A DNA stretch of 64,000 nucleotides, from NCBI GenBank assembly GCA_020639315.1, contig JACKGM010000002.1, positions 30,321-94,320 on the forward strand, in the 5' to 3' direction. Every line of letters starts with the position of its first letter. Position 1 is the stretch's first letter. A program made the position numbers and the translations under genes. The notes under the pieces were generated by a model. It had not been told where the DNA came from and searched no databases. It was given only the letters and a program-made list of their open reading frames with translations. The stretch is from Candidatus Nomurabacteria bacterium. Its GTDB lineage: Bacteria; Patescibacteriota; Saccharimonadia; JAGOAT01. Shown piece by piece: positions 30,017-55,182 of the stretch.

Positions 30017-31959
30017 ATATTTTTGGTGATCACTATGATCAGGGACGAGATTACCAGTCGAGTAGCTTCCAGCAAAAGATTAGTGATAGTGAGCTTTGGT
30101 CAAGTCAACTACTAGCGGGGAGTTCTGAACAACGGATTGAGGAAGAAGTCGATAAGAAATTTTTTAAGCTACTATTTTTGCCAATTATTTTTGTAGCCTC
30201 GCTTTTCATCGGTCAATTGTTCAATCTACAGTTTATAGAAGCTAACAATCTAGATTTCTTGGCTCAAACCAATCGACTGAGGAGTCAATTGATCAGAGCA
30301 CCGAGAGGAATTATCTATGATCGCAATAGTCAACCACTGCTTAGGAATACTTCCGAATATCAGTTGGTATTAAACCCAACATTACTAGACTCAGATAGTG
30401 CAAAGCTAGAGCAAGACCTGCAAGCGATTAGCCAAATTATAGACTTGGATCATCAAGCCAAGCTTGATCAGATTCAGTCAAAGTTGCGCCAGAGAGAGAC
30501 AATCGTGATCGCTGACAAGATTGAGAAAGATCAGGCAATTTCACTCCAGGAGCTGGAGGCAGACTTGTCGGGATTTGGAGTTGAGATTAGACCCAGTAGA
30601 GAATACCTTTATCCAGAAGAGTTTGCTCATATCTTGGGGTATACTGGTCGGGTCACTGCAGAGGATCTTGAGAGGAGTGACCAATATCAAGTGACTGATA
30701 TTATAGGCAAGCTAGGGCTTGAACAGCAGTACAACCAAACTCTCTCAGGTGAGGATGGCAAGATTCAGTTTGAGGTCGATTCTACAGGTCAACCTATTCG
30801 GTTTCGCCCTAGTCAGGAGCCAGTAGATGGGGAAGACTTGGTAACAACCTTGGATTTGGGCTTACAGGAAGAGGCCTATAAAGTGATTGAGAAATATAGC
30901 AATCAAGCAGGGAGTGGCAGGGGTAGTATGATGGCTATCGACCCTAATAATGGTGAGATTTTGGCAGCCGTTAATTACCCTAGCTATGATAACAATCTGT
31001 TTGACAAGGGAATTGGTCAGGCGGATTATGATCAATTGGTGGGAGACCCAGATAAACCGTTATTTGATCGACTGATTGGAGGTAGCTACCCTGTGGGATC
31101 GATTATCAAGCCACTGATTTCACTAGCCGGGTTGGAATCAGGGGTGATTGATCAAACTACGACCTACAATGATACCGGATCACTAATCATAGAAAATATT
31201 TACGATCCTAGTATAGTCTATCAATTCAAAGGGTGGAATCCAGCTGGGCTTGGACCGGTCAATGTGATCAGAGCTTTGGCTCTTAGTAGTGATATTTTTT
31301 ATTATATAGTAGGTGGGGGCTATAAGGACTTGATTGGTCTGGGGGGAGAACGGTTGACAGATTGGTATCAAAAATTTGGTTTAGGCAAACTGACAGGGGT
31401 CAATATTCCAGGAGAGTCAGCTGGTAATCTGCCATCACCAGCTAAATGGGCAGAAGTAGGTAGAGATTGGCTACTGGGAGATAGCTACAACATTAGTATT
31501 GGACAGGGTGAACTTCTGGCTACTCCACTCCAAATGCTCTACGCTACTGCTTCAATCTTTGGGGGAGGTAAATTTTACCAGCCAAATTTTGTCAAATCGA
31601 TTGGGGATCAGGTAGTGGAGTCAAAAGTAGTGCAAGAAAATGTCTATAGCGAGGTTAATCGTCAGCTCGTGCTTGAAGGGATGAGGCAGGCTGCTTCGTC
31701 ATTGGGGACGGCTGGGTCAATCTTTGCAAGTCTACCATTTAGAGTAGCTGGCAAGACGGGTACGGCCGAGACTAGCACTGAGTCGGGGGATTCCAATCAG
31801 ATTAGATCTAAGGCTCATGCTTGGTTTACAGTGGGTGCACCTGATGTCAATACTCAGATCGTGATGATCGTTATGATTGAAAACGCTGGGGAGGGGTCAG
31901 CTTTTGCGGCTCCAGCTGCTCAGGAGATATTGAGCTGGTGGGCTGAGAATCGATACTAA
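29998..31959 (+). CDS. mrdA: penicillin-binding protein 2 (elongasome transpeptidase)
   Basis: SIIK (SxxK) and KTGTAE motifs. The start could be ATG 30004. Confidence 0.85.
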   Translation: MVMGKINIFGDHYDQGRDYQSSSFQQKISDSELWSSQLLAGSSEQRIEEEVDKKFFKLLFLPIIFVASLFIGQLFNLQFIEANNLDFLAQTNRLRSQLIRAPRGIIYDRNSQPLLRNTSEYQLVLNPTLLDSDSAKLEQDLQAISQIIDLDHQAKLDQIQSKLRQRETIVIADKIEKDQAISLQELEADLSGFGVEIRPSREYLYPEEFAHILGYTGRVTAEDLERSDQYQVTDIIGKLGLEQQYNQTLSGEDGKIQFEVDSTGQPIRFRPSQEPVDGEDLVTTLDLGLQEEAYKVIEKYSNQAGSGRGSMMAIDPNNGEILAAVNYPSYDNNLFDKGIGQADYDQLVGDPDKPLFDRLIGGSYPVGSIIKPLISLAGLESGVIDQTTTYNDTGSLIIENIYDPSIVYQFKGWNPAGLGPVNVIRALALSSDIFYYIVGGGYKDLIGLGGERLTDWYQKFGLGKLTGVNIPGESAGNLPSPAKWAEVGRDWLLGDSYNISIGQGELLATPLQMLYATASIFGGGKFYQPNFVKSIGDQVVESKVVQENVYSEVNRQLVLEGMRQAASSLGTAGSIFASLPFRVAGKTGTAETSTESGDSNQIRSKAHAWFTVGAPDVNTQIVMIVMIENAGEGSAFAAPAAQEILSWWAENRY

Positions 31960-32483
31960 TCTAGGAAGGTAGCTGGAGTTCTGTAGAAGTCTAGTATGAT
32001 TTCAAATGGGATTCCTAGCCTTTTACCCTCAATGATATATTCAAGGGGGATTCCTAGTCTGTGAGCTTCAATCGCTTGTTCGGCTGATAGACCTATTTCA
32101 TAGCCACTCAAGATTGCTGCCAGCTTTTGACCTAGTTCGGTTAGCTGACCGTCATTATCTAGAAGATCTTCACAGCCAACTTTCTTTAGTCCTTCTTGGT
32201 CCAGTCCAAGAAGCTTCTCTGGATCTTGATTATCGAAAGCAGTTGGATTTTCACCGAGGAACTCCGCAAGAGTATCAAGCAAGCCAGCACTTACTATTTC
32301 TTGACTCCCAGGCACCTGGGCTGTTTGAGTTGGTGAACAGTCTTCTTGACTGCCGCCAAAGGAACATCCGGGTAATGTAGCTGCCGTCAGTGCCATAGCT
32401 ACAACTCTACCCAATAGAACTCTACCCAATAGTTTATTACCAGCTTCTCTTTTCTTACTTTCTAGTAGTTTAATTGTATTCAT
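31956..32483 (-). CDS. hypothetical lipoprotein
   Basis: Lipobox LPGC after a signal peptide; 175 aa. Confidence 0.55.
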   Translation of the reverse strand: MNTIKLLESKKREAGNKLLGRVLLGRVVAMALTAATLPGCSFGGSQEDCSPTQTAQVPGSQEIVSAGLLDTLAEFLGENPTAFDNQDPEKLLGLDQEGLKKVGCEDLLDNDGQLTELGQKLAAILSGYEIGLSAEQAIEAHRLGIPLEYIIEGKRLGIPFEIILDFYRTPATFLD

Positions 32484-32529
32484 ATCAGCAGTATTCTAAA
32501 CCAATACTATATATTTGTCAAGCATAATT

Positions 32530-33053
32530 CATAATTCAAATACTGGATCTCCCATAATTTCCTACGGAAATTTGGAAGATGACACACAGAGGGCATTGTC
32601 ATCCTCCGAAACTCGTCCCTTGTCTTGTCATCCTCCGAAACCCGCCCCTCTCTTGTCATCCTCCGAATCCCCGTTTCTCTCTTGTCATCCTCCGAAGTTC
32701 GGAGAACTTACGGGGGATCCAGTATTCCCGCATTTGCATTGTCATCCTCCGAAACCAGAGGGTTTACGGGGGATCCAGTATCCTGGCATTTCCATCCGTC
32801 ATACTCAGAACTTGCTCTGGGTATCCAGAAAACTAACAATAAACATTAAAAGTAACTGTATTACCTAAACCCTAAACCATTATCTAGAGTTCTGGATCCC
32901 CAACCTTTCCTTCAAATGAAAGGCGGAAAAGTCGAGGATGACCCAACTCCTGTCATCCTCCGAAACCCCCTCCCTGTCCAGTCATCCTCCGAAACCCCGT
33001 TTCTCTCTTGTCATCCTCCGAAGTTCGGAGAACTTACGGGGGATCCAGTATCC
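32530..33053. repeat. REP-like module cluster
   Basis: Antisense module 32538..32584; half-modules; sense modules 32683..32726, 32740..32782 and 33009..33053; degenerate units between. Confidence 0.85.
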
Positions 33054-33092
33054 TGTATCTTCAAGATCCACTACGCTTACAGAAACATCAGA

Positions 33093-33183
33093 TGGTGCGG
33101 ATGAGAGGATTTGAACCTCCACGGAGTTTTGATCCTCCACTAGGACCTGAACCTAGCGTGTCTACCGATTTCACCACATCCGC
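33093..33183 (-). tRNA. tRNA-Leu (anticodon CAG), long variable arm, CCA encoded
   Basis: Hand fold: GCGGATG acceptor, anticodon arm CTAGG-TTCAGGT-CCTAG, T arm GGAGG-TTCAAAT-CCTCT. Confidence 0.9.
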
Positions 33184-33213
33184 AATGCCTTACTATTTTA
33201 ACACAAATCTAGA

Positions 33214-33380
33214 TATAGCCCCCATAAAACAAAACCTGTACTTTTGAGCGTACCTTACAGTCTATAGTTATCGCTATTACTCCTCACTGTGTCTACGGAT
33301 ATGATTTGTCACAATAACAACAACTCTAGATCCATAATCTATCATTCAAAACAAACAGGTTTTATTTTACGACGGCTATA
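33214..33380. mobile_element. MITE-B1 copy (167 bp including TATA at both ends)
   Basis: Homologous to 41715..41881. The right end supplies the last 6 codons and the stop of ORF 33362..34456. Confidence 0.8.
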
Positions 33381-34456
33381 GGATTAATTATCTTGCTATC
33401 CACTAGGCCGTCCTTATCCACTACTATCAGCCTTAGACTGTCAATCGGTTGATCCCCAGTCAGATTGAGGATGTTGCCTTCGAGCCAATCTAGGCTTTGA
33501 TTGACCTGCCAATAATACTGCTGGATTCCCTGATCATCTACCGAAGCTGAACCGTCATAGAGCTGGCCACTTTTTTGCTCCAAAACAGCTACTGGTGCAA
33601 GCTTTCTCTTGCCGAAATAGCTATAGATGATAGGCTTGGCGTTTTCTTTCGGCAATTCGGTAATATCTACTAGTCTTGCCTCTTCTGTTTGGTACCCTAG
33701 ACCACGATAAGTAGCTTGATTGCTAAAACCTTGCTTCTTCAGGTAACCATTTTCTCGGATAATCGTGTAATATTCTTGGTTTTCAGTCTGGAACATGCTA
33801 CCAATCTTGAGCTCCATATCATTACCTCGTGGCAGAATCAAATCAAGCTCGGTTGCCGAGAGGGGTAAATAAGTCGGATCTATGTAGCTACCCAAAATGA
33901 TTTGATCTGGGAAGCGTCTTAGCTGGCGGTTCTCGATCAAAAATGTATCTTCACCACTTCTGATGATGCTACCTTCAGGATGAAGAGCTGACAATTGATA
34001 ATCCTCACCAGTTTTTTCGGGCAATTGATCTAGCTCGACTTCTAGGATTTGGTCTGGCTGATAACCAAGTAGATTGAGGACCTCAGAGCTAATTGGGCGC
34101 TTGGTTACCTCTTGCTTACCCTCGATCAGGTAGTGTTGCCCCTTGGACAAGAGGATAGTACCTTGATTGTAAGATAGCTGATAGCCATCGGGTAGGGCGA
34201 GATCTGTGTCAGTAGCTAGCTTGAGGTTGATCGGAGTGACCCCATAGCTAGCTAGGACACTAGGGTAGGTAAGTAAGTGTTTTTTGTAGTCCTCACCTAT
34301 CAGGTAGATTGATTTGGTAGTAGGGTCGAAAATAAAGGTGTTGGGGAGGTGTTTTACCCTGAGGGTGGAGTGATAGTTTGAGTAGGTTCTAGTGAGACTT
34401 AGTGCTAGGTTGAAAGCTATTATGACCAGTAGTATCCGAAATAGAATTTTCTTCAT
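33362..34456 (-). CDS. hypothetical secreted/membrane-anchored protein
   Basis: 364 aa with an N-terminal signal anchor. Confidence 0.55.
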   Translation of the reverse strand: MKKILFRILLVIIAFNLALSLTRTYSNYHSTLRVKHLPNTFIFDPTTKSIYLIGEDYKKHLLTYPSVLASYGVTPINLKLATDTDLALPDGYQLSYNQGTILLSKGQHYLIEGKQEVTKRPISSEVLNLLGYQPDQILEVELDQLPEKTGEDYQLSALHPEGSIIRSGEDTFLIENRQLRRFPDQIILGSYIDPTYLPLSATELDLILPRGNDMELKIGSMFQTENQEYYTIIRENGYLKKQGFSNQATYRGLGYQTEEARLVDITELPKENAKPIIYSYFGKRKLAPVAVLEQKSGQLYDGSASVDDQGIQQYYWQVNQSLDWLEGNILNLTGDQPIDSLRLIVVDKDGLVDSKIINPIAVVK

Positions 34457-34523
34457 AAATCTATTTTATTATATAGGACTTTCACACTTCGTGGTAGATT
34501 TTTTAGCTCTTCAAGATGAGTAC

Positions 34524-34567
34524 CTAGAGTTGGGTCAAAAGTCTGGTTTTGTTTTTAACTTGCTATA
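34524..34567. mobile_element. MITE-B2 right-end fragment (44 bp)
   Basis: ctagagttgggtcaaaagtctggttttgtttttaacttgctata is identical to the right arm of 53118..53281. Confidence 0.7.
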
Positions 34568-34581
34568 AATAGAATGTTTAA

Positions 34582-34744
34582 TAACCCTGTTGCCATATAA
34601 ACTTGCGAGGTCAAAGCTGATGATTTTTATTCCAGACTAGCAAAACACGACAAAGCATAACAGGAGTTACGCTGCGAAGTGTTTTGCTAGTCTGGGGCAA
34701 AAATGGCAGTTTTGAAGCCGTGAGGTTATATGGCAACAGGGTTA
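34582..34744 (+). mobile_element. MITE-A copy 4 (163 bp)
   Basis: Same family and orientation as copy 1. Confidence 0.85.
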
Positions 34745-34816
34745 ATGTATAGTCGCGTAGTCGCGGACAGTTCGCGACAGTTCAGGAGATATTCGGTGTC
34801 TGAAAATATCTAGCTA

Positions 34817-35305
34817 TTACGGTCGGATTTTTTGTGATAGCACTTCACTGAATAGATAGGCTATGGCAGAAACTGCCAAAGGTGCTAAGGCAAGGACAAT
34901 ACCAATTATTATCAAGCCTGGAGCATCTGTTTCGCCTGCCCACCAATAGAAAAAGGGAAGATCAAGAGAGAATATAATCGTAATCGTTAGGGCTAGCTTA
35001 GATATAATCTGTAGAGACTTTGTGGCTTTATTAGTATAGATTTGATTTGAGCCGATCAGGTTTAATAGTTTCCAGCCGGTAACTAGACCATAGATAAATA
35101 GTGTTGTTGTGAGATAGAGAGAAATAACGACAATATAGACTGGGTAAAGTTCCTCGAAAGCGTCAGGACTTGGGTCGGTCATTATTGAGATACTTGAGGC
35201 TATACAGATAGCTAGCACCCCTAGCGCAGCCAGAATAAATACTCCTTTTAGGGTGGTGATCGATAGACTGGAGGTTAGGCTATATTGATCGGAGGCCTTT
35301 TTCAT
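34817..35305 (-). CDS. hypothetical membrane protein (4 TM)
   Basis: 162-aa hydrophobic ORF. Confidence 0.5.
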   Translation of the reverse strand: MKKASDQYSLTSSLSITTLKGVFILAALGVLAICIASSISIMTDPSPDAFEELYPVYIVVISLYLTTTLFIYGLVTGWKLLNLIGSNQIYTNKATKSLQIISKLALTITIIFSLDLPFFYWWAGETDAPGLIIIGIVLALAPLAVSAIAYLFSEVLSQKIRP

Positions 35306-35354
35306 AGATTAATTATAGCACGCTCAAAACTAGCCTGTTTCGAGCCTGAACTAT

Positions 35355-35517
35355 ACTCGACTTACGCAAAACTCCTGAACTCCCAGACTCACCCCCAGCG
35401 TTCAGAATTCCTTTTTTAAGCTGTCACCGATACTAAGGTATCGCTTCCATCAGAAAAAGAACTTCTGAATCACTGGAAAGTAACCCTGGAGAGACCGAGG
35501 TTTTGCTTAAGTCGAGT
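35355..35517 (-). mobile_element. MITE-C copy 2 (163 bp, intergenic)
   Basis: Reverse-complement homolog of the cysS insert; AT on both flanks. The central hairpin cgatac/gtatcg covaries with cgatgc/gcatcg. Confidence 0.8.
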
Positions 35518-35650
35518 ATATGGATGACACTGACAAATCACCTTAGCCGACAAAAAGCCTGTGATAAATCTTAGGGGTAACCAGTTTTATGGCTCAAATC
35601 CGTAGAGCTTGAGCGAGTATCTTAGCCGAGCCTAACCTGAGTAGTCAGGA

Positions 35651-36268
35651 CTAACACTTCACCACTGGTTGCCTCAAGATAGTCCGTAGCTTGTCAGGAC
35701 TAACCTTACGAAAATCGCTAAAGTAAATCTCGTGGTGCTTACCAACCATTTTCAGCCCCCTTTCGGGTATAAATCGATTATGTATTTGGTCTAGTATGTC
35801 TGCCTCGTTGTCAAACGAACCTACATGTAAAGTCTGAACAGATAGCCCTTCATCGAGTGTTTCAAGGCGTACATCATATAATTTGGCTGGTGACTCTTTC
35901 TTTGCTATCTCAGTTACAATATTTTCAAACATCTCTTGCGTAATCCAATTAGGTTGCATAATCATTAGCGTGAAGTTCCATTGTGACTTGTCTCGTGCGG
36001 TCGTAAACGTCGTCATATCATCGGCCCACCATAATCCCTCAAGTGGCATGACTACATAGTCCTTGCCTAGTTCTTTTTTGCTTACAAACTTGAGCTTGTA
36101 TGCAGTGGGGTATAGAGCCTGCACAGCATCAGTAAAATCCTTGCTAGTATTCGGGTCGCCGTGACCGTCTACCATTAAGTACTGTAGCTTTGGCACTGCA
36201 ATCAATTCGATCTTATGGTTTTTAGCTTTGTAACTATCAACTGCTTTTTTGTAATCAATCTTGTTCAT
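35651..36268 (-). CDS. GyrI-like small-molecule-binding domain protein
   Basis: PKLQYLMVDGHGDPNTS...; ATG at 36268. The track start at 36316 extends into MITE-D. Confidence 0.6.
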   Translation of the reverse strand: MNKIDYKKAVDSYKAKNHKIELIAVPKLQYLMVDGHGDPNTSKDFTDAVQALYPTAYKLKFVSKKELGKDYVVMPLEGLWWADDMTTFTTARDKSQWNFTLMIMQPNWITQEMFENIVTEIAKKESPAKLYDVRLETLDEGLSVQTLHVGSFDNEADILDQIHNRFIPERGLKMVGKHHEIYFSDFRKVSPDKLRTILRQPVVKC

Positions 36269-36285
36269 AGTCTTAGTATAGCAAG

Positions 36286-36451
36286 TAGACTTGTTTCCCA
36301 ATAATTTTTTGAGCATAAAATTGCCTAGTTTGAGACTAGAATAGTCTTTTCGTAAAGAGCCCTAACAGAGTTAAGATGATGAAGCGAAAAAATTATTATA
36401 GTTCAAAGTAGGCGGTTTGGGGCCAGAAACCGTACTTAAGGAACAAGTCTA
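36286..36451 (+). mobile_element. MITE-D copy 2 (166 bp)
   Basis: The ends tagacttgtttcc / ggaacaagtcta covary with copy 1. Confidence 0.75.
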
Positions 36452-36461
36452 AGGAGTATTG

Positions 36462-36550
36462 GTCATCCTCCGAAGTTCGGAGAACCTACGGGGGTCCAGA
36501 GCATTGCCATCCTCCGAAACCCGAAGGGTTTACGGGGAATCCAGTATTTT
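36462..36550 (+). repeat. two tandem REP-like sense modules
   Basis: Inner stems AAGTTC/GAAC(C)T and AAACCC/GGGTTT. Confidence 0.8.
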
Positions 36551-37133
36551 GTACAGTCTCTTTTGTCTGTAGTTTAATATTAGCTAATTTGGAGGGAGTG
36601 CGAAAGTCCTATAGTGTTAGGGCAGAGAGTTTAAGTTTAATACGTCTTTTACTACTTGAACTAGTCAAACTCCTATTTCATTCAGGCTCAAAGCTTTTAC
36701 AAAACTCATCAGCTAGGTAAAATAGTACTATTAGATCCATATACGTGTCTCCTTTGTTTTTAATTTATATATGACTGAGATAATAGCAGGACTTACCTCC
36801 TGTTATCTAGGTGAATTCAGAGGAGACTCCTATATCGAGCTGGGGGTTAAGTATAGCTCTTTTTTTGGATAGATTTTAAAAGACTATGCTTTTAGCATTA
36901 TTAGCTACCTGATCTTTTTATCCCTAGTGTTTCGCTGTCATTACAGCTCATCAGAACAACTTAAGCTTGGTATTTTCAATAAAACCTAAACTAATTTGTT
37001 GACACTCTCGCTCCTCACTGCTTGTGGCGGTGAGGAGCTAATCTTTCATCCATTGTGGAGGATTACTCGATCAGAAACAATCATAGAAAGTTTAGAGAGT
37101 GCCGATCTTTTCCTTCCGGCTTGTTCGATATAC

Positions 37134-38597
37134 TTACAGGGCTAGGTTTTCCGTCTCTGGCATGTCAGCTTCGGACAGTGTTGTTGACTGTGATTCCTCT
37201 CCGAACAAGCCGGAAAAATCCACACCAACAGCTTTGAGCATCATCAGACCGCGAGCCAGCTGTGTGGGCAGCTGGTCCATGAATCCACCGAGACCATTTG
37301 CGCCACCACCGTCAAGGACGGTGATATTGTCAATACCCGCGAGGGGCTCGCCAACTGCACGCATGATGTCGGCCAAGCGCTCAATGAGCATGGGTGTTGC
37401 TTGTGCGCGAAGCGCGGCAGCATCCATCGCTTTGAGAGCTTCAGCAAGCTTGGCTTGACCTTCGGCTTCGGCAAGGAGTCTGGCCTGTGCTCCAGCCGCT
37501 TCGGCCTCCAGCTCGCGCTGGCGGGCATCAGCAGTCGTAGCTCGAGCAGCTGCTTCCGCATCGCCTCTGAGTCTTATCCCTTCAGCCTCTGCTTCCGATC
37601 GAGCAATAGCTGCGGCTTTGTCGCCCGTAGCTTTTTCGATAGCAGCTTCCTTGGCAGCTTGCGCCGGGATGATCACGTCGGCCTGTTGGGCCTCGTGTGC
37701 ACGAAGTGCACGTTGACGTTCCACCTCAACACGAGCTTCTTCTTCAGCCTGGTCAGCAGCCGCGTTTGCAACTACGACAGCCTTCCTGGCCTCAGCATCA
37801 GCACGTGGGCCAGACTGAGCAGCGGTAGCGCGTTCTGCATCGACAGTCGCCTGGATTCGAGCGAGCTCGAGATCTCGGTCTTGCTCTGCTTGAGCGATAG
37901 CCACGTCAGCCAACGCTTGAGCTGTGTCTCCTTCACGTTTGGCCTCTGCTGCAGCGATCTTCGCATCACGCTGAGCGTTGGCCTCACCGATTTCGGCATC
38001 TCGACGAACCTCAGCGATTCGTCGTCGACCGAGAGATTCCAGGTAACCGTTTGGATCGGAAATGTTCTGGATTGTCAAGACATCCAGCTCCATCCCAATC
38101 CTCTGGAAATCCGTACCGGCCTCTTCGAGGACGCGGCGACGGAAATCCTCACGGTTGTTATTTAATTCCTCGACGGTCATCTGCGAAACAATGCCTCGCA
38201 TATTGCCCGCAAGTATCTCTTGCACCTGGTTGTGAAGCTCCCGTCGGTCAGATGTCAGGAAACGTTCTACCGCCGTAGCGATAGCCTCGTCCGTTGAGCC
38301 AAATTTAATCAGTCCAACCCCATCGACATTGACTGGAACACCGTCCGTGGAAATGATGTTCGACACCGCGACCTGGACGTTGAACGGCTCCAGCTCCATG
38401 ACGTCGACTCGCTCAATGAGGGGGAACTTGAAACGTGCCCCACCTCGAACGATTTTCTGCTTTCCTCTTCCGGTGAAAACTGCCACCTGGTTAGGTGGCA
38501 CCTTAACGTAGTTTCTGGCGTAGATCATCGCGATTAACGCCAGAATGGCGAATCCGCCGATGACAAGCATCAGTGGTATGGTCAGAAAATCGGGCAT
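37134..38597 (-). CDS. flotillin-like SPFH/band-7 domain protein
   Basis: N-terminal TM, SPFH domain, long Ala/Glu-rich coiled coil, GGAG SD; ~60% G+C. Confidence 0.85.
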   Translation of the reverse strand: MPDFLTIPLMLVIGGFAILALIAMIYARNYVKVPPNQVAVFTGRGKQKIVRGGARFKFPLIERVDVMELEPFNVQVAVSNIISTDGVPVNVDGVGLIKFGSTDEAIATAVERFLTSDRRELHNQVQEILAGNMRGIVSQMTVEELNNNREDFRRRVLEEAGTDFQRIGMELDVLTIQNISDPNGYLESLGRRRIAEVRRDAEIGEANAQRDAKIAAAEAKREGDTAQALADVAIAQAEQDRDLELARIQATVDAERATAAQSGPRADAEARKAVVVANAAADQAEEEARVEVERQRALRAHEAQQADVIIPAQAAKEAAIEKATGDKAAAIARSEAEAEGIRLRGDAEAAARATTADARQRELEAEAAGAQARLLAEAEGQAKLAEALKAMDAAALRAQATPMLIERLADIMRAVGEPLAGIDNITVLDGGGANGLGGFMDQLPTQLARGLMMLKAVGVDFSGLFGEESQSTTLSEADMPETENLAL

Positions 38598-38634
38598 CTC
38601 CCGACTCCTTTCTTATGGGTTGAGATTCTCATTG

Positions 38635-39180
38635 TTATAATGGATTGGGGGCAACTACAAAGCAGCCATCACAAAAGTCAATGATGATTACCGACGAGCC
38701 CAAGGGCATCTTGGGACCCCCTTGACTAACGGCGGTAACATCTACGGTAGCGTTATTATCATCCCGTAACCTGACAATTCCCCAGTCGCCTGAGCCTATG
38801 GACATGATCACGAGGCCTGTCTTGCCAATGTATGACTGCTTCGACAATTGGGAGTTGGACTGCTGCCTAAACAGCGGCCGCAGAACCAAAAAGACGCTTG
38901 CTATCAACATGACGAAAAAGGCGACGATCGCAAGAGCAAAGGTCAGAATTGCCGGTATGTCTGCCCTTTCGGACAAATAGCCGACAAGACCCAAACCTAT
39001 GGCTCCCGCAGCGATCGCTTTGAGACTAAAGAACGAGGGTTCTCCTGCCTCGAAGTCGAAATCCAGGTCAGCATCGAGGCCCTCCAGGAATTCGAAGATC
39101 CCACCCAGAAAGAGAGATCCGATCAAATACACAGCCCCAACTGCTGCTATCAGCAGGTATAGGTTTCCATGATCTAACAT
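38635..39180 (-). CDS. NfeD-family membrane protein
   Basis: TM helices plus C-terminal OB-like domain (GKTGLVIMSI...GSSVIIID); AAAGGAAG SD before ATG 39180; upstream of the flotillin gene as in yuaF-floT. Confidence 0.75.
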   Translation of the reverse strand: MLDHGNLYLLIAAVGAVYLIGSLFLGGIFEFLEGLDADLDFDFEAGEPSFFSLKAIAAGAIGLGLVGYLSERADIPAILTFALAIVAFFVMLIASVFLVLRPLFRQQSNSQLSKQSYIGKTGLVIMSIGSGDWGIVRLRDDNNATVDVTAVSQGGPKMPLGSSVIIIDFCDGCFVVAPNPL

Positions 39181-39597
39181 AGGCTTCCTTTCTCTCTGTT
39201 TCACTCGCTGTTTGCGAAGTGTCGAGACGGAATGCCTCGAAATCAATAAATTCTGACATTGTCTCTAAGCTTAAGTTCTGACTTATAACTTGGGTTTAGT
39301 GAATTTACTAATTTCGAAACACTCGTTCGATAAAAACAAAAAAGTGGGAAGGGATTAGTTGCACTTCTATCTAAAACTTTCTATAGATTGTTAAGGTGCT
39401 AGTTTAAGAACAGTTTTGCTAAATAACTAAAAGTTTTAACTTTTAGTTATTGCTCCACGCTCAACAAGCCAGTGACATCATGGCATATTAGGACAGATAA
39501 GTCAACCTTTTTACGTGTAACTATAGGATATATCCTACTTGCCCTAAATCAATCTAGGCTTTGTGACTAATTAGGCTTTAGGCTTAAACCAACCCTA

Positions 39598-40230
39598 CTA
39601 TACAATTGCATTAGGTCTATGTGTCTCCAGGTAGGTAATAAGATGTCGTCTAAAGTCTTTAGATACTACTTCCCAATCTGCAATCGTAAAGTCCTCAGGT
39701 GCTTTACCGAACTTCTTGGCTAATTCAGCACCGCCGTTGTCGGTCTCCCAATCACCAAAGTATGTTCTCCAATGCAACACTTCTACCGTTGGCTTGCCAT
39801 CTTTGTGGCGAATAGCTCCGCCGCCGATCCCCGTTCCCCATATAACATAAGCAAACTCGTCCTCAGAATGCCCATAGTAAGCTTCGCCAAGTTCAGCAGA
39901 CATAACATCGTTGTCATAAAATACGGGACAGCCACCTAATCCCTCTGAAAGAGAGGCAACAAGTGGCTTGCCAGCCCAACTTGCTAGGTTCTTCGCCGAT
40001 TTAATCTCTGTCTTGTCATCGTTAGGGGAGCCTGGAGTACCAATGCCTACAGCTTCTATCTGTTCACCGTCTGCAATTTTAAGAGCAGACTCAACCATAA
40101 AAGCTAAGTCGTTATCAAAGTCGTGAGTATTCTTTCGACGTAGTGGTTCACCAATAAACACTGGGTTTTCTATGCTAGAAGCACCAGCTATACGAGTGTT
40201 AGTACCACCTGCGTCGATAGATATATACAT
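39598..40230 (-). CDS. ROK/ASKHA-type sugar kinase-like protein (short, no zinc motif)
   Basis: DAGGTNTR, GIGTPG, DNDVMSAELGE, WGTGIGGG motifs; 210 aa. Confidence 0.6.
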   Translation of the reverse strand: MYISIDAGGTNTRIAGASSIENPVFIGEPLRRKNTHDFDNDLAFMVESALKIADGEQIEAVGIGTPGSPNDDKTEIKSAKNLASWAGKPLVASLSEGLGGCPVFYDNDVMSAELGEAYYGHSEDEFAYVIWGTGIGGGAIRHKDGKPTVEVLHWRTYFGDWETDNGGAELAKKFGKAPEDFTIADWEVVSKDFRRHLITYLETHRPNAIV

Positions 40231-40420
40231 AAGGTATATTATAGCACTTTATGGAGTACTATTCAAGATGCTAGTGCTATCTCTATACGTCGCACATTAT
40301 ATGTTGCACGATCTACCCTAACAGGGGTAGAGCTGCATATTTATCGAAAATGGGTCATGTCAAGTGCTTGTATTCTTTTCGCCCACCCCTGTTAGAAACA
40401 GTTATTATACAATAATTGAT

Positions 40421-41290
40421 TTAGTCTATTGGTTGTGACAAATTATTGTCTAGAAACTTGTAAGCATACTCTCGCATTTCAGGGCTGAACACATGTTGAC
40501 CAGGATAAACCTTTAGCTCCACGTTCTGTTGACCCTTGGCTTTGATTGCTTCATAAAGCCCATCGTAGCCCCGACTCCACTTGTCTTCAATCGTAGCTGA
40601 GATAAGCAGAGGGCAATCATCAAAATGCTCAATAACATCTTCTAAATCGAATTTTTCCATGAAGCCAGGAATACAGAACTCCATTTGTATGCCCGTGTCT
40701 GGTGTTAGTGAGTGCCTATAATCTATGCAGCCACAATTAGAAACTGATGCTCTAATTCGGTTATCAAATGCAGGAACCCAAAGAGCCATACGTCCACCAT
40801 AAGAGTGACCAATAAACCCAATCTTGGTTGAGTCTACATTAGGCTGAGCTTGAAGGAAATCTAACCCGACAGATACATCATGTAATACTTTTGCCATTAA
40901 GGTGTTACCTTGTACTAACCTCGTTGCTAACGCAAACCATTCGCCCCCACCTTGTCGTTCTTCAAATGCAATAGCGTCTGGTGCAAATGTAATATAACCA
41001 CGCTCCGCAAGTTCTTTTGCGTAGGCTTGGTCTGGGTTACCAGCTAGTCCAACAACTTCATTTTTGCCAAGCTCAAACTCACCATGATGCTGATGATGAC
41101 AAAAGATTGCCGGCACATTCCCTGATAAGTTTTTCGGGATACAAATGTAGGCATTTATTCGTTCATTGGCTTCAACCATGTACGAAACCTTGCGTCTAGT
41201 GAAGCTACCACAATCGACTTCTTCTAGAACTTGAGAGTCTAAATCAACTTTTTCGGGAAATGTTCCAAGTAGCTTTTGTATTTCGTCCAT
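40421..41290 (-). CDS. alpha/beta hydrolase (dienelactone hydrolase/acetyl esterase-like)
   Basis: GHSYGG nucleophile elbow, 289 aa. Confidence 0.6.
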   Translation of the reverse strand: MDEIQKLLGTFPEKVDLDSQVLEEVDCGSFTRRKVSYMVEANERINAYICIPKNLSGNVPAIFCHHQHHGEFELGKNEVVGLAGNPDQAYAKELAERGYITFAPDAIAFEERQGGGEWFALATRLVQGNTLMAKVLHDVSVGLDFLQAQPNVDSTKIGFIGHSYGGRMALWVPAFDNRIRASVSNCGCIDYRHSLTPDTGIQMEFCIPGFMEKFDLEDVIEHFDDCPLLISATIEDKWSRGYDGLYEAIKAKGQQNVELKVYPGQHVFSPEMREYAYKFLDNNLSQPID

Positions 41291-41342
41291 AGCGATATTA
41301 TACCTCAGTAGCTCTTGCTTTAGACTAGTGATTTTACTATAT

Positions 41343-41360
41343 TAACCCTGTTGCCATATA
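41343..41360 (+). mobile_element. MITE-A terminal fragment (18 bp)
   Basis: taaccctgttgccatata, then unrelated sequence. Confidence 0.5.
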
Positions 41361-41484
41361 GCCCAGAAAAGAGTGTCCACCTCTTGGCTTATCCAGTTTT
41401 TCTTAGGTTGCTTGTAGCTGTTGGTTAATCCTAGTTCGTTCTGTATGCTCTAAGTAAAAGTTCCATAAACCTGCACTGATTAGT

Positions 41485-41698
41485 GACCCCTCCGGAACTC
41501 ACTAACCCACTTCCTTGTATTCTCTAATGCAGGATTGATACTGTGATCCTCAAAAACCTGGAGGGTTTACGAAGTTTCGCATTGTCATCCTCCGAAAATC
41601 CAAAGGATTTTACGGGGGAACCAGTATTTTGCATTGCCTGGGGTTAACTCAAATACTGGATCTCCGGTATCACCCTACGGGTAATCCGAAGATGACAG
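41485..41698 (+). repeat. 214-bp direct repeat, left copy (unique 60 bp + degenerate module + REP doublet)
   Basis: Same length as 44670..44883, with about 7 substitutions by eye. Confidence 0.85.
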
Positions 41699-41714
41699 AA
41701 GAAAAACAGATACC

Positions 41715-41881
41715 TATAGCCCTCGCAAAACAAAACCTGTTTGTTTTGGGTGATAGATTATTGATCTAGAATTGTCGCTATTGTGACAAATCATATCCGT
41801 AGATATGGTTAGGAGCAATAGTGACAGTTATAGACCATATGATACAGTCAAAAGTACAGGTTTTGTTTTTCGGGGGCTATA
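41715..41881. mobile_element. MITE-B1 copy (167 bp, intact)
   Basis: tatagccctcgcaaaacaaaacctg...caggttttgtttttcgggggctata. Confidence 0.8.
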
Positions 41882-41952
41882 TAAAGTCCTGTGGGATCTT
41901 TGAGTTTGCTATATGACAGGGTTAGGGTGGTAAATTTGGGTTGGCAACGATA

Positions 41953-42258
41953 CTACTCTTGTGAGTTGTTGGGTGAGTTGCAGACCCCGTTTTCATTATA
42001 CCCAGGGCATGGGTCAGTCAAGCCTGCTAATTGCCTATAGGATCTAGTAATTATGCCGTTAATTTCCTCAGTAAGTTGATGACGTGTAACTTCTAAGTCA
42101 CGCACTGCTTGAGTAGGTGGCAAACCATAAACCGGAGAACTCATCCTTGTAACATTATCTCTAGTCCCCTCTTGAAGAGTAATTATACGAGCAAGTTCTT
42201 GTACTCTATTACATTTGCGACATTTAGCTGGTATTTCTGATAGGGAGTTTGATTCCAT
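41953..42258 (-). CDS. hypothetical Cys-containing protein
   Basis: 101 aa, CRKC...CPGYNENGVC; diverges from the IS left end. Confidence 0.4.
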   Translation of the reverse strand: MESNSLSEIPAKCRKCNRVQELARIITLQEGTRDNVTRMSSPVYGLPPTQAVRDLEVTRHQLTEEINGIITRSYRQLAGLTDPCPGYNENGVCNSPNNSQE

Positions 42259-42300
42259 ACCAAAACACTACATTAAAAATTTAAAAAAGTCAATATTTAC

Positions 42301-43712
42301 TCTTTTCCAATGCAGAATGAGCCTAAACAAGGTTCACCTGTTGGCAAGGTAGACATACTCTAGGTAAGTCAATTATCCTGTCAAAAGAAAAATGTGTGTC
42401 AACATAGGAGTATGAATTTCACCATGAAGACACACAATATTACTATTAACGATATTAAAGACTTTGTAAATAGACAGAGCCCATTGTTAATACCAGCTGA
42501 CAATAATACCAAGGCTAGCAACTATGAGTTTGTAGAGGATGTTTTAGTGAGTATTTGCTACCTTAAACTATCTAGATCTGATAAGGGAGTAGTTAAACAG
42601 TTTTTAGCTACTAATACTGGCTACAAAAGAGCTCAGGTTACTAGATTGATTAATCAATACATTAAGTCCGGTACTGTTAAGCTAGCACCGCGTAAACTAG
42701 GCCAGAATTTCAAACAGGTTTACACCAACTCAGATATTAGGCTATTAGCTAGATTTGATCAATTAAATGAATTTATGAGTGGACCCGCTACAGTCATGAT
42801 GCTTCATGATGAGTATTACCTACATAGACAAGAAGCATACCAAAAACTAGCCAACATCAGCTCCTCCCATATCTATAACCTACGTAATACAAATACCTAT
42901 TCTACCAGGATACAACGCTATCAAAAGACTAAACCTAGAACTGTCAGTATCGGCACTAGAGCCAAACCAGAACCAAATAATCAACCTGGCTTCATAAGAG
43001 TAGACAGTGTGCATCAAGGGGACAGGGATAAAGCCAAGGGGGTTTACTATGTCAATCTGGTAGATGAAGTTACTCAGTGGGAAGTAATAATGTGTCTTGA
43101 TAGTATCTCTGAAAGATCAATGATCCCAACCTTAAAGTTAGCTATCAATGAGTTTCCTTTTGAGGTTAAAGGATTCCATAGTGATAACGGTAGTGAGTAT
43201 ATTAACTACCAAGTAGCTAAGCTGTTGATTGAGCTCAATATCAATCTAACCAAAAGTAGACCTAGGCATAGTGGTGACAATGGGCTTGGTGAGAGTAAAA
43301 ATGGCTCCGTGATCAGAAAAACTTTTGGCTATACTCATATACCAATAACTGCTCATAATGTATCTAGGATTAATCTTTTTCTCTCAGAATACCTAAACCC
43401 CTATCTCAACTACTACCGAGCATCAGCCTACAGAAAAACAGAGGTACTTAGTAATGGCAAGATAATACATAGCTACCCCCATAAGGACTACCAGACACCT
43501 TACCAGAAGCTTAAATCAATAGACCCTAGGGGAGAATACCTAAAACCAAATACTAGCTTTGCAAAAATGGATCAAGTCCTCTATGCTAAAAGTACTACTC
43601 AATACCTAGAAGAGATGCAAGAAGCAAAAACTAGGATGTGGGATAGTCTTGAACCTTACAAACATTAATCGTTGACAGACATTCTTTAGGCTCATTTTGG
43701 TATTGGAAAAGA
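42301..43712 (+). mobile_element. IS element (1412 bp) with ~30-bp imperfect terminal inverted repeats
   Basis: Left end tcttttccaatgcagaatgagcctaaacaa; right end reverse complement tcttttccaataccaaaatgagcctaaagaa. Confidence 0.8.
42412..43668 (+). CDS. DDE (rve/integrase-core) transposase
   Basis: DSVHQGD...FHSDNGSEYIN...GESKNG catalytic-triad context. The start is uncertain (GTG 42394, ATG 42412 or ATG 42424). Confidence 0.8.
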   Translation: MNFTMKTHNITINDIKDFVNRQSPLLIPADNNTKASNYEFVEDVLVSICYLKLSRSDKGVVKQFLATNTGYKRAQVTRLINQYIKSGTVKLAPRKLGQNFKQVYTNSDIRLLARFDQLNEFMSGPATVMMLHDEYYLHRQEAYQKLANISSSHIYNLRNTNTYSTRIQRYQKTKPRTVSIGTRAKPEPNNQPGFIRVDSVHQGDRDKAKGVYYVNLVDEVTQWEVIMCLDSISERSMIPTLKLAINEFPFEVKGFHSDNGSEYINYQVAKLLIELNINLTKSRPRHSGDNGLGESKNGSVIRKTFGYTHIPITAHNVSRINLFLSEYLNPYLNYYRASAYRKTEVLSNGKIIHSYPHKDYQTPYQKLKSIDPRGEYLKPNTSFAKMDQVLYAKSTTQYLEEMQEAKTRMWDSLEPYKH

Positions 43713-43917
43713 CTTATTTAGCTACCATACTGATTCTGGTGCACCTGATGACAGGTGTATTAAACCTTTGGAGAGTATATCTGATTGGCTGCTAAGCAGT
43801 CCAGATATAGACTAGGTTTTACAGCTCAGGAACGCTTCGTTATCTAGCTTTGTACCACAATACCAGCTCTGATAAAAGCGTGATATTACACTCGTTAGGA
43901 GGCGTTTGAGCTTACGC

Positions 43918-44586
43918 TTAATTATTGGTCTGTTTTTCAGCATTATAACTGATTAACCTAGCAATGGAAGGCTCAACATTTGTAGCACCATGAAGCGTAA
44001 CTGCTGGGTGATGAGGAAACATCGCCACATCACCAGGTCTAAGCATAGCTTCTGACCGAGGAATACGTGGAATACGTCCAGCGATTATTTCACTCTGTAA
44101 TTGTCCATTGAATTCATAAAACTCACTGTAGGCGGAGGCATCAAATGTTCCGTCCTCATTTCTAAAATCATATGGCAAACGCTCTGCCATAAACTTTCTC
44201 AATCCTTTAACACAAAGGCTCAGTTGTACCCCAGCTTCGATCCTTCTGTCTCTGTAAACTAGTTCATCAACATGTGGGGGTATGCCTGGCTTTCTTAACT
44301 GGTCTAACATAAAGCCATCTATAATATTCATGCCTCGATAGCCTTTTTTTACCCAACTAGTCTTAACTAAACCCTCAACAATATGAAGCTGCGGAAGTTC
44401 GTTTCCTAGTCTCTCTGTATTTATCTGGTCGTTTTGTCGGCTTCCATCATCTAGCTCCTCAAGAAGTGTGCTAGAGTGGTCAATGACATTACTAATTGCT
44501 GCCATGTCAAATTCCTCAGTAGTCAGCAGTGCTTCTGCCGCTTCTACGAGTCCGTTTGGTCCACTGGCTTCGAATACTCTTGACAT
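43918..44586 (-). CDS. hypothetical protein, possible 2OG-Fe(II) oxygenase fold
   Basis: PPHVDE (HxD), a later TLHG His, and an Arg. TGCTATAAT lies 9 nt upstream of ATG 44586. The track start at 44640 runs into the solo IS end. Confidence 0.4.
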   Translation of the reverse strand: MSRVFEASGPNGLVEAAEALLTTEEFDMAAISNVIDHSSTLLEELDDGSRQNDQINTERLGNELPQLHIVEGLVKTSWVKKGYRGMNIIDGFMLDQLRKPGIPPHVDELVYRDRRIEAGVQLSLCVKGLRKFMAERLPYDFRNEDGTFDASAYSEFYEFNGQLQSEIIAGRIPRIPRSEAMLRPGDVAMFPHHPAVTLHGATNVEPSIARLISYNAEKQTNN

Positions 44587-44630
44587 AATATGTAGATTAT
44601 AGCATAGAACTGTTAAATGTCTAGGGTTAC

Positions 44631-44669
44631 TCTTTTCCAACCTAGAATGAGCCTAAACAATGTTTACTT
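44631..44669 (+). mobile_element. solo left end of the rve-type IS (truncated second copy)
   Basis: tcttttccaacctagaatgagcctaaacaatgtttactt matches 42301..42340; homology stops where the right 214-bp repeat starts. Confidence 0.7.
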
Positions 44670-44883
44670 GACCCCTCCGGAACTCACTAACCCACTTCCT
44701 TGTATTCTCTAATGCAGGATCGATACTGTGATCCTCAAAAACCTGGAGGGTTTACGAAGTTTCGCATTGTTATCCTTCTAAAATCCAAAGGATTTTACGG
44801 AGGAACCAGTATTTTGCATTGCCTGGGGTTAACTCAAATACTGGATCTCCGGTATTACCCTACGGGTAATCCGAAGATGACAG
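44670..44883 (+). repeat. 214-bp direct repeat, right copy
   Basis: See 41485..41698. Coordinates were checked against the frame of spurious ORF 44700..44903. Confidence 0.85.
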
Positions 44884-44903
44884 GAGGAGGGACGGGACTT
44901 TAA

Positions 44904-45066
44904 TAACCCTGTTGCCATATAAACTTGCGAGGTCAAAGCTGATGATTTTTATTCCAGAATAGCAAAACACGACAAAGCATAACAGGAGTTACGCTGCGAA
45001 GTGTTTTGCTAGTCTGGGGCAAAAATGGCAGTTTTGAAGCCGTGAGGTTATATGGCAACAGGGTTA
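44904..45066 (+). mobile_element. MITE-A copy 5 (163 bp)
   Basis: Same family and orientation as copy 1. Confidence 0.85.
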
Positions 45067-45135
45067 ATTAGGATATAACAAAAGAAGGTGAAAAAATTAT
45101 AAGACAATAGAGTTAATATAATCAAAATATCAAGA

Positions 45136-45223
45136 TGGTGCGGATGAAAGGACTTGAACCTTCACGCCAGAGACTGGCACTAGCTCCTAAGGCTAGCGTG
45201 TCTACCAATTCCACCACATCCGC
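45136..45223 (-). tRNA. tRNA-Leu (anticodon UAG), long variable arm, CCA encoded
   Basis: Hand fold: GCGGATG acceptor, anticodon arm CTAGC-CTTAGGA-GCTAG, T arm GAAGG-TTCAAGT-CCTTT. Confidence 0.9.
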
Positions 45224-53151: not shown

Positions 53152-53281
53152 GCTGTACTATAGAGAACTAGAAAGGTAGTTCTTCTTAAGAACCATATCC
53201 ATAGATATGGTGAGTAAGAAAACTAGCTTTATAGACTCTAGAGTTGGGTCAAAAGTCTGGTTTTGTTTTTAACTTGCTATA
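53118..53281. mobile_element. MITE-B2 copy (164 bp)
   Basis: tatagcaagctcaaaacaaaaccggac...tctggttttgtttttaacttgctata. Confidence 0.85.
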
Positions 53282-53285
53282 TTAC

Positions 53286-54855: not shown

Positions 54856-55182
54856 GCCCTCCTCCTGCCACCAAACCAAAATCCTACTCATCCCTCTTGC
54901 GTCATATTCCAAAATCCCGCAGGGATTTATGGGATATCCACCTCCTCCTGTCATCTTCGGATTACCCTTTAGAGTAATACCGGAGATCCAGTATTTGAAT
55001 TGGATACCTGTAAATGCAGAGATACTGGATCCCCCGTAAGTTCTCTGAACTTCGGAGGATGACAATGCACAATGCCGAATACTGAATCCCCCGTAAACTC
55101 CTTCGGAGTTTCGGAGGATGACAAGAGAGGGGCGGGTTTTGTAGGATGACAATGCAAAAGTGTAGTTTCGGGAGGGGTAACA
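54856..55182. repeat. REP-like module cluster
   Basis: Sense modules 54901..54939 and 54949..54996; antisense modules 55021..55064 and 55078..55123; half-modules. Confidence 0.85.

Follow-up and report, generated by a model that had tools for sequence, protein, structure and literature searches.

A probable decayed island at tRNA-Leu(UAG) in a Saccharibacteria genome, marked by the remnant of a small element with a split open reading frame

Genomic and pathogenicity islands associated with tRNA genes classically carry integrases of the P4 type. In Prochlorococcus, tycheposon islands hold flexible genes at tRNA genes, successive integrations push older elements inward, and, along with incomplete tRNA copies and broken-up recombination genes, the islands carry cargo whose function is niche-related or unknown (bioRxiv 10.1101/2020.12.28.424599). 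In SSV1-like elements, the integrase gene is split on integration (PMC6563490). Here we analyze a window (the whole stretch of DNA under study, 64,000 nucleotides of contig JACKGM010000002.1, deposited as Candidatus Nomurabacteria bacterium) that contains a 12-kb block of mostly minus-strand genes between two tRNA-Leu genes. We find that this block is probably a decayed accretion island that grew at the 3' end of tRNA-Leu(UAG) in Saccharibacteria and was later scrambled. The argument hinges on the remnant of a small element, marked by the last 44 codons of a gene that we name orfX and by a mimic of the tRNA-Leu 3' end (the core), and on split copies of the same gene at other Saccharibacteria loci.

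The locus resembles each of these systems in part. With islands of the P4-integrase type it shares a location at a tRNA 3' end, a mosaic of accessory cargo, insertion sequence (IS) elements, and decay of mobility genes, but it lacks an integrase, its far end carries no clean direct repeat, and its composition is mostly native. Like the tycheposon islands, it lies in a streamlined genome, and one related locus (L095, from another Saccharibacteria lineage) has the same kind of array split by repeats of the tRNA end. However, there is no tyrosine recombinase of the tycheposon type and no replication module, each unit is ~1.3-1.6 kb long and carries one cargo gene, the core for attachment sits inside an open reading frame (ORF) without a known family, the host is an episymbiont of the Candidate Phyla Radiation (CPR), and only decayed copies are seen. 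As in SSV1-type archaeal elements, an ORF contains a core mimicking the tRNA 3' end, and the N-terminal part of this ORF is found at one end and its C-terminal part at the other (in L095 and in a further locus, L108); unlike in those elements, orfX has no similarity to tyrosine recombinases, only 44 codons remain on one side, and the setting is bacterial rather than archaeal. Lastly, integron cassettes offer a parallel in that unrelated single cargo genes, promoter-less in appearance, carry the same short 3' element and are stacked at one site, but here that element is a coding fragment plus a tRNA mimic instead of an attC hairpin, neither IntI nor attI is nearby, and the array is at a tRNA gene.

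The part of the block nearest to tRNA-Leu(UAG) contains the following features, listed from the tRNA gene inward.

45136-45223, minus strand: tRNA-Leu(UAG), the putative island anchor (attL side), with its 3' end toward the block (ARAGORN and Rfam)
44615-45068: secondary insertions between tRNA-Leu(UAG) and p240 (repeat analysis)
43918-44640, minus strand: p240, a hypothetical protein (ORF; 222 aa if read from the ATG at 44586)
43735-43925, minus strand: 190-nt module comprising the C-terminal part of orfX and the core (homology to L095; nhmmer)
42299-43714, plus strand: IS481-like insertion sequence of 1416 bp (rve; transposase at 42394-43668)
41953-42258, minus strand: orf101, a hypothetical protein of 101 aa and the first gene past the att-like core (ORF; unannotated in the NCBI record)

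Past the stop codon of p240 come 190 nucleotides (43735-43925) that abut the IS and share homology with the 190 nucleotides that follow the stop codon of a hydrolase gene in L095, a 1.31-Mb contig with a guanine-plus-cytosine (GC) content of ~55%. This module sits ~1.4 kb beyond the 3' end of tRNA-Leu(UAG) and occurs only once in the window. A validated pattern scan of metagenome contigs (25-nt gap) added six loci with the whole module (L103-L108), so that, with L095, seven other Saccharibacteria-type loci carry it; in nhmmer searches, the window copy scores E = 5.6e-60 and L103-L108 score 1e-34 to 1e-48 (overall range 1e-34 to 1e-62). A single reverse frame of the module is much better conserved than the others, and on that opposite strand the peptide reads ...EPFxSISDWLLSSPDIDWxLQLR..FVQQYQL followed by two stops. 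Variable sites number 14/10/24 at codon positions 1/2/3, and some pairs of copies differ mainly by synonymous changes. Given this conserved frame and the excess of third-position changes, the module represents the last 44 codons of a gene, orfX. We also considered that the module might be a structured RNA or an integrase arm site; for the same two reasons a coding fragment fits better. The orfX codons in the window (43738-43869, plus strand) contain an in-frame stop, so this C-terminal part is a pseudogene, as it is in L095, again with an in-frame stop.

The frame of the C-terminal part opens at a mimic of the tRNA-Leu 3' end (GGTTCAAG...GCACCA). In the window, this core lies at 43737-43766 on the minus strand (GGTTTAATACACCTGTCATCAGGTGCACCA) and is a diverged 30-nt mimic that shares GGTT.AA...TCATC...GCACCA with the tRNA end; a search of the window for extra partial tRNA copies with up to 3 mismatches found none. 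No remnant of the orfX N-terminal part is detectable in the window, and miniature inverted-repeat transposable elements (MITEs) and a sequence resembling an IS end occupy the position that it holds in L108 and L095. Directly upstream of the module lies p240, in the position held elsewhere by six unrelated cargo genes, and p240 is probably the cargo gene of a tRNA-proximal element remnant.

Related loci retain both parts of orfX. In L108 (GC 0.37), the order is recG, rsmD, tRNA-Leu(UAG), a 177-aa N-terminal part of orfX on the reverse strand, a pilin-like cargo gene, and the 44-codon C-terminal part with the core. The last codons of the N-terminal part (...SSGADERT*) run into the 3' end of tRNA-Leu(UAG), and the C-terminal part is 1.4 kb off. 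In L095, the order is rsmD, tRNA-Leu(UAG), the hydrolase gene, a GyrI-like gene, an SPFH gene, trpR, and his genes. The stretch between the tRNA and trpR has a GC content of 0.43-0.47 in a background of 0.55-0.59, near the 0.42 of our window, and there are three perfect 21-nt copies of the tRNA 3' end (in the tRNA itself, 145 nt downstream, and between the hydrolase and GyrI-like genes). Based on this low GC content and these repeats, the L095 hydrolase and GyrI-like genes belong to an islet at tRNA-Leu(UAG) that is foreign in composition and has att-type bounds. An N-terminal orfX remnant follows the second perfect repeat, and the far junction is a hybrid, with a left side of the module type and a right side of the tRNA type (ATCCGCACCA plus the tRNA's own downstream flank). 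In a third locus, L104, the C-terminal part, core, and N-terminal part are contiguous. The cargo upstream of the module differs wherever it is visible: p240, a dienelactone-hydrolase-family (DLH) gene, a pilin-like gene, DUF3626, the APH family, and an unknown 319-aa protein.

These split-ORF hybrid junctions bear the signature of site-specific recombination between the tRNA 3' end and a core inside the ORF. The module is found beside tRNA-Leu(UAG) in two of the seven other loci, L095 and L108, and between these two the orfX N-terminal part is 84-88% identical in amino acid sequence, compared with 61-65% for RecG and 51% for RsmD. Since orfX is more conserved than the host proteins, the element has moved between lineages. 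The sequence-only reading of our window had suggested an old, decayed tRNA-associated island, and the finding of a split-ORF and tRNA-3'-like core remnant 1.4 kb from tRNA-Leu(UAG), of the kind that marks elements elsewhere, bears this out. As a separate observation on L095, a unit made of the tRNA 3' end, a terminator hairpin, a ~100-nt GC-rich and hairpin-rich spacer, and the 21-nt repeat occurs twice (9548-9733 and 11054-11266), flanking the hydrolase cassette; the two spacers are alike only in their first ~70 nt, and a single integration does not explain the duplication.

Based on these loci, we propose that small integrative elements would consist of a cargo gene plus the conserved orfX, with an attP core (the tRNA-Leu 3' mimic) placed 44 codons ahead of the stop of orfX. 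The element would be inserted when this core recombines site-specifically with a tRNA 3' end, after which the orfX N-terminal part would abut the tRNA, the cargo would come next in the same orientation as the tRNA, and the last 44 codons with the core would mark the far end. Repeated integration would push older material away from the tRNA, and the minus-strand orientation of the block would be uniform because the orientation of integration is fixed relative to the tRNA. The youngest recognizable unit in the window would be tRNA-Leu(UAG), p240, and the orfX C-terminal part with its core (45135 down to 43737), in which MITEs and a solo IS end would have replaced the orfX N-terminal part and the IS481-like element would have landed beside the core. 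Farther inward, the DLH-ROK and GyrI-like genes would be genes that circulate among Saccharibacteria, with DLH and GyrI-like genes present in the equivalent tRNA-Leu(UAG) islet of the 55% GC lineage, and a high-GC NfeD-flotillin cassette would have replaced the ROK 3' end and whatever came next. Only the ~1.4-kb element remnant and the ~3-kb NfeD-flotillin replacement are seen directly as insertions. For the remainder of the block we infer island status from cargo common to distant lineages, and we likewise infer the accretion of the whole 12 kb, a recombinase encoded by the element (now or once), and the directions of transfer.

Later insertions have modified the tRNA-proximal unit. The gap between the tRNA and p240 contains a 170-nt MITE (44899-45068), a 218-nt repeat (44669-44886), and a solo sequence resembling an IS end (44615-44670). 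The 218-nt repeat is 97% identical to a direct copy at 41484-41701, and the solo end is a second IS left end with 80% identity over 56 nt to 42285-42340. These copies bracket orf101, the IS, and p240, which hints that an IS copy was present earlier or that the region was duplicated locally. The 1416-bp IS has an rve transposase (Pfam E = 3.7e-9) with a weak match to the IS481 model NF033577 (55 bits against a cut-off of 224 bits), imperfect inverted repeats of 26-31 nt near 42302-42327 and 43687-43714, and a 5-bp target duplication, TATTT, at 42294-42298 and 43715-43719 as read from the sequence. Its insertion point is ~22 nt past the att-like core.

The rest of the block and its left edge are made up as follows.

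40421-41290, minus strand: DLH, a dienelactone-hydrolase-family alpha/beta hydrolase (Pfam DLH)
41484-41893: MITE cluster with the 218-nt repeat and a 181-nt element (repeat analysis)
39598-40230, minus strand: ROK-family kinase-like gene, 3'-truncated (Pfam ROK)
39181-39597: AT-rich spacer of the foreign segment (composition)
38635-39180, minus strand: NfeD (weak NfeD_TM match; named 'NfeD family protein' in the source record)
37134-38597, minus strand: flotillin (Band_7 E = 3.5e-29, Flot E = 5e-10)
35651-36316, minus strand: GyrI-like small-molecule-binding protein (Pfam)
34817-35305, minus strand: DUF2975 membrane protein (Pfam; odd codon usage)
33362-34456, minus strand: p364 (364 aa), whose N terminus has a hydrophobic segment resembling a membrane anchor (ORF)
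33202-33382 and 34524-34750: MITEs near p364 and DUF2975 (repeat analysis)
33093-33183, minus strand: tRNA-Leu(CAG), a complete isoacceptor (ARAGORN and Rfam)
32525-33053: MITE cluster in the left context (repeat analysis)
31956-32483, minus strand: 175-aa lipoprotein-like gene that converges on PBP2, outside the tRNA bracket

Several of these genes recur in other Saccharibacteria. The window hydrolase is 89% identical in amino acid sequence and 82% in nucleotide sequence to the cargo of the L095 element, and all other members of its tight sequence cluster (nominally 90%) are from the L095 lineage. A second variant from that lineage, 86% identical to the window protein, is located in a low-GC island next to a tRNA-Glu gene (L100). 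Across these contexts, homology is confined to the gene itself, and the hydrolase moves horizontally as a single-gene unit. The L100 island (1-16000) is at least 16 kb long, has a GC content of 0.40-0.45 against ~0.56 for the genome, adjoins tRNA-Glu(UUC), and encodes a type I restriction-modification system, DUF3768, and DUF7249 in addition to the second hydrolase variant. The GyrI-like protein is 81% identical to its L095 counterpart (78% in nucleotides), whose gene lies 88 nt after the third tRNA-end repeat. In both loci the GyrI-like gene adjoins an SPFH gene (L095 11354-12995, a 301-aa HflC-like protein; window 35651-38597, the flotillin), although the two SPFH proteins are not orthologous; this adjacency may be a coincidence or a functional pairing.

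The ROK gene contains a rearrangement breakpoint. It was taken at first for a short ROK-like kinase; the ROK domain is confirmed, and the protein is short since the gene is 3'-truncated, with 210 aa compared with ~258-267 aa in homologs and the last ~48 codons lost. A joint query with ROK and DLH retrieved many homologs at 35-60% identity. Contigs from a sister lineage (L109-L111) are collinear with the window at 86% nucleotide identity from 41314 down to exactly 39602, past which they have an intact ROK 3' end and then an HD-domain gene that is missing from the window. Since collinearity ends inside ROK (breakpoint 39601/39602), the NfeD-flotillin segment is a lineage-specific replacement; a comparison of gene order with related genomes had been called for, and the sister lineage departs from the window at this position.

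The segment 37134-39597 itself is foreign and came in as a cassette of its own, truncating ROK at its 3' end. NfeD-flotillin (SPFH) gene pairs are known from Bacillus subtilis, and the window pair has the same order, NfeD then flotillin, and the same Band_7 and Flot domains; in contrast to the B. subtilis-type operons, its behavior in CPR bacteria is that of a two-gene cassette that moves horizontally. We find it in three other Saccharibacteria contexts, in the hpf-secA and dnaK-dnaJ intervals and beside gltX, always with a GC content 12-16 points above that of its contig. The pair lies at L086 4753-11491 (together with ~7 kb of other DNA, between hpf and secA), L091 9401-11464, and L088 9425-11470, and in L086 and L088 an additional high-GC gene lies directly upstream. 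The nearest named homologs outside CPR come from Mycobacteriales (Motilibacter, Rhodococcus, Gordonia, Mycobacterium) and Dehalococcoidia at ~50-58% identity, and in a rough neighbor-joining tree without support values the window copy falls in a clade with the other Saccharibacteria copies. Saccharibacteria live on members of Mycobacteriales, and the flotillin cassette is a candidate for host-to-epibiont transfer.

Composition sets this pair apart from its neighbors. Compared with 44 genes outside the block, flotillin has a GC content of 0.562 (z-score +5.4) and a codon-usage z-score of -4.1, and NfeD has z-scores of +4.0 for GC at third codon positions and -4.6 for codon usage. The high-GC stretch is limited to ~37100-39200, and the NfeD-flotillin segment has a GC content of 0.50-0.63 versus 0.42 in the rest of the window. 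The pair, flagged from the start as high in GC, is the sole clear outlier in the block (~2.1 kb). A gene-by-gene check of composition and codon usage thus marks NfeD-flotillin as foreign and DUF2975 as having odd codons (z-score -3.5), but not the other seven genes, which are native-like.

All of this content lies in a block of unusual orientation. Nine of its ten coding sequences are on the minus strand, the only exception being the rve transposase (42394-43668), and 41 of 44 genes outside the block are on the plus strand; by a rough binomial estimate, such a minus-strand run would arise by chance with a probability of ~1e-9. The contrast with plus-strand flanks noted in the sequence-only reading therefore holds, except that the run begins before the CAG tRNA, at the 175-aa gene (31956-32483). 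We rejected a replication origin or terminus as the cause of the accompanying change in skew, which merely tracks gene orientation. The accessory list given earlier (GyrI-like, NfeD-flotillin, ROK, alpha/beta hydrolase, rve IS) is matched by Pfam and NCBIfam families: DUF2975, GyrI-like, Band_7 and Flot, NfeD (weakly), ROK, DLH, and rve (IS481-like). The 364-, 101-, and 240-aa ORFs have no match in Pfam or NCBIfam, nor does p240 have one in PHROG; by eye p240, listed earlier as a possible 2OG oxygenase (a class with a double-stranded beta-helix fold and an HxD...H triad), carries an HxD...H-type motif (PPHVDE...TLHG), and a single-sequence AlphaFold model (predicted local distance difference test score 46, low confidence) has no beta-sheet core. 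A supposed IS982-like remnant downstream of flotillin (peptide MDLIVLFYLADEFCKSFEPE, ~36680-36740) was dropped, as six-frame NCBIfam and Pfam scans did not support it. Independent assemblies (L001, L003, L085) reproduce the junctions of the block, which is therefore not an assembly artefact, and a separate 5-kb contig also has the order hydrolase-ROK-NfeD-flotillin.

Copies of five MITE families were said to lie in the block, and we find them there. MITE-like repeats make up 8.6% of the window and 14.4% of the block versus 7.2% outside it, so that they are about two-fold enriched but not specific to the block, and they occupy most of the long intergenic spaces across the window. In the 170-nt family, the 5 copies are 95-99% identical and have terminal inverted repeats of 38 nt. 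Elsewhere in the window, repeats lie at 2343-2649, 8523-9201, 10155-10393, 18227-18692, 21902-22062, 24769-25096, 32525-33184, 53117-53643, 54869-55171, and 61572-61624, and there are arrays of 28-31-nt units (TGTCATCCTCCGAAA...) with GGATCCCCCGTAA...TTCGGAGGATGACA palindromes. This richness in repeats that resemble MITEs or repetitive extragenic palindromes is unusual for so small a Saccharibacteria genome, and contigs of short-read metagenome-assembled genomes from the same species end at such clusters. Additionally, a 163-nt inverted repeat (76% identity) links 11719-11881, inside the coding sequence 11471-13063, to 35355-35517 in the DUF2975/GyrI spacer; instead of a MITE, this could be a stray piece of a gene.

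The flanks show that gene order has changed at this site. PBP2 homologs and the protein names in the source records place the genome in Candidatus Saccharibacteria; for proteins on the same 371-kb contig, one NCBI record uses the label 'Candidatus Nomurabacteria bacterium' and another the label 'Candidatus Saccharibacteria bacterium'. On the left are the cell-envelope genes mreB-mreC-mreD-PBP2 (PBP2 at 29998-31959), and on the right are a sortase gene, a PEGA protein gene, murA, a second mreB, wzy, and a glycosyltransferase gene. Among 80 Patescibacteria loci retrieved with a PBP2 profile (L004-L083), mreBCD-PBP2 is conserved and greA follows PBP2 in most, and the closer Saccharibacteria relatives have greA-(lysS)-serS-hpf-secA after PBP2, with lysS in about half. 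None of greA, lysS, serS, hpf, or secA is present in the window. The near-universal and very old PBP2-greA order is broken in the lineage of the window and in its sister, exactly where the minus-strand run begins, and the 4-bp convergent overlap of the 175-aa gene with PBP2 is also found in the sister species L084 (86% PBP2 identity). The proposal of a recombination-prone variable region is supported in two ways, by the sister collinearity that ends in ROK and by the greA-lysS-serS-hpf-secA order of relatives. Synteny in relatives, suggested as a check, shows greA-serS-secA in place of the block. As to whether the two tRNA-Leu genes adjoin elsewhere, the 30 loci scanned, with the closest Saccharibacteria among them, contain no tRNA-Leu within 10 kb of PBP2 and only two stray tRNAs that are not of the Leu type, and relatives with 43-50% PBP2 identity have no tRNA within that distance. 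The two MreB paralogs on either side of the block (48892-49905 and 27680-28732) are 47% identical, and in other Patescibacteria (L026, L030) a second mreB with a glycosyltransferase cluster lies ~6 kb upstream of mreBCD-PBP2.

Could the two tRNA-Leu genes be the attL and attR of one 12-kb element? Both are on the minus strand, and ARAGORN, Rfam, and an alignment agree with the earlier description of near-identical beginnings (2 differences in the first 31 nt) and identical 3' ends (the last 12 nt). However, they are complete genes that share the D-arm region and acceptor end and differ in anticodon, anticodon arm, and variable arm, and integration at the 3' end of a tRNA produces only a partial copy of that end and no further complete gene; the real att repeats in L095 are 21-nt copies of the 3' end. 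The block begins at the 3' end of tRNA-Leu(UAG) and is faced by the 5' end of tRNA-Leu(CAG), so these genes cannot mark both ends of a single integrated element. We consider this explanation hardly credible: the likeness of the two genes is ordinary isoacceptor similarity, irrelevant to the island, and only tRNA-Leu(UAG) appears to act as an anchor, with tRNA-Leu(CAG) as the far edge rather than an att site. It is also very unlikely that the strand switch came from an inversion or translocation by homologous recombination between MITE copies at the edges instead of from integration. Each edge does have a MITE cluster (32525-33184 and 44627-45068), inverted copies are numerous in the window, short-read assemblies of the same species break exactly at these flanking clusters, and the neighborhood of tRNA-Leu(UAG) is unlike that in L095 and L108. 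Yet the PBP2/175-aa junction is kept in the sister species and so is not a recent MITE-mediated breakpoint, the cargo in L095 and L108 is co-oriented with the tRNA in the same way, so that the orientation needs no inversion, and such an event would leave the att-like remnant and the foreign cassette unexplained.

A weightier alternative, although one that we still judge unlikely, is that the block is a native, lineage-specific minus-strand cluster that was hit independently by NfeD-flotillin, the IS, and MITEs, with an incidental link to the tRNA and with DLH and GyrI exported from it. Several points weigh against an accretion island, and some of them favor this alternative. Seven of the ten block genes are native-like in GC content and codon usage (within 2 standard deviations of the 44 outside genes), so DLH-ROK may be long-resident or native and this lineage the donor rather than the recipient; likewise, the DLH copies of L095 and L100 lie in low-GC islands of high-GC genomes, as expected from a low-GC donor like this lineage, and DLH-ROK is conserved in the sister lineage. 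No tRNA-end repeat is found at the far (CAG) edge, leaving a single att-like remnant in the window, and no integrase or recombinase was identified in the window or in any related locus. As the sequence-only reading had also reported for the block, scans found only the rve transposase: the ten main block ORFs have no Phage_integrase, Resolvase, or Recombinase domain in Pfam or NCBIfam, the spacers 36554-37133 (six frames) and 39181-39597 (three minus-strand frames) contain no recombinase, and a tyrosine or large serine recombinase with a replication module is absent from the window, L095, and L103-L108. Sequence and profile searches with the orfX family in Pfam, NCBIfam, PHROG, and PDB returned nothing significant (the best hit, phrog_95 'integrase', has E = 0.93), intact orfX has no significant match in viral contigs or in phage and plasmid records, and every copy seen is truncated or pseudogenised, so no active element is seen. 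The divergence between the window and L095 is gauged from tRNA identity (85%) and PBP2 (at most 47%, the best homolog outside the sister lineage), uncalibrated on shared housekeeping genes. Lastly, recG-rsmD precedes tRNA-Leu(UAG) in L095 and L108 versus a sortase gene in the window, which indicates that the whole neighborhood was rearranged and that part of the block could stem from that rearrangement. Against a native cluster, the orfX C-terminal part and tRNA-like core right after p240, 1.4 kb from tRNA-Leu(UAG), would be unexpected, the region replaces a near-universal PBP2-greA-serS-secA arrangement, and the sister lineage already differs in gene order. We therefore retain the decayed accretion island at tRNA-Leu(UAG) as the probable explanation.

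The block itself probably belongs to a known class, the tRNA-linked accretion islands, and the orfX-core element family may be new. A broader proposal, possible but on balance doubtful, is that Saccharibacteria carry minimal integrative 'gene shuttles', each made of one accessory gene and orfX with its internal tRNA-Leu core, that stack at tRNA-Leu(UAG) and move genes between lineages whose core proteins are ~50-65% identical, and that the block in our window is an eroded product of them. If so, either orfX would represent a novel type of recombinase or of recombination-directing protein, or the units would depend on mobilization in trans, as cassettes do.

CPR/Patescibacteria have tiny genomes in which few mobile elements have been described. 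In a limited literature search, neither tRNA-linked islands nor flotillin transfer came up for Saccharibacteria, nor did a description of orfX-type elements, so the gain of accessory genes in these bacteria is poorly documented. The hydrolase and NfeD-flotillin occur in different contexts from lineage to lineage, and the GyrI-like gene is common to a distant lineage. This locus and its relatives point to a concrete route for such gain, in which a hot spot at tRNA-Leu(UAG) would gather single-gene units with a recognizable end signature, and searches with the orfX C-terminal part and its core can be used to map flexible genes throughout Saccharibacteria.

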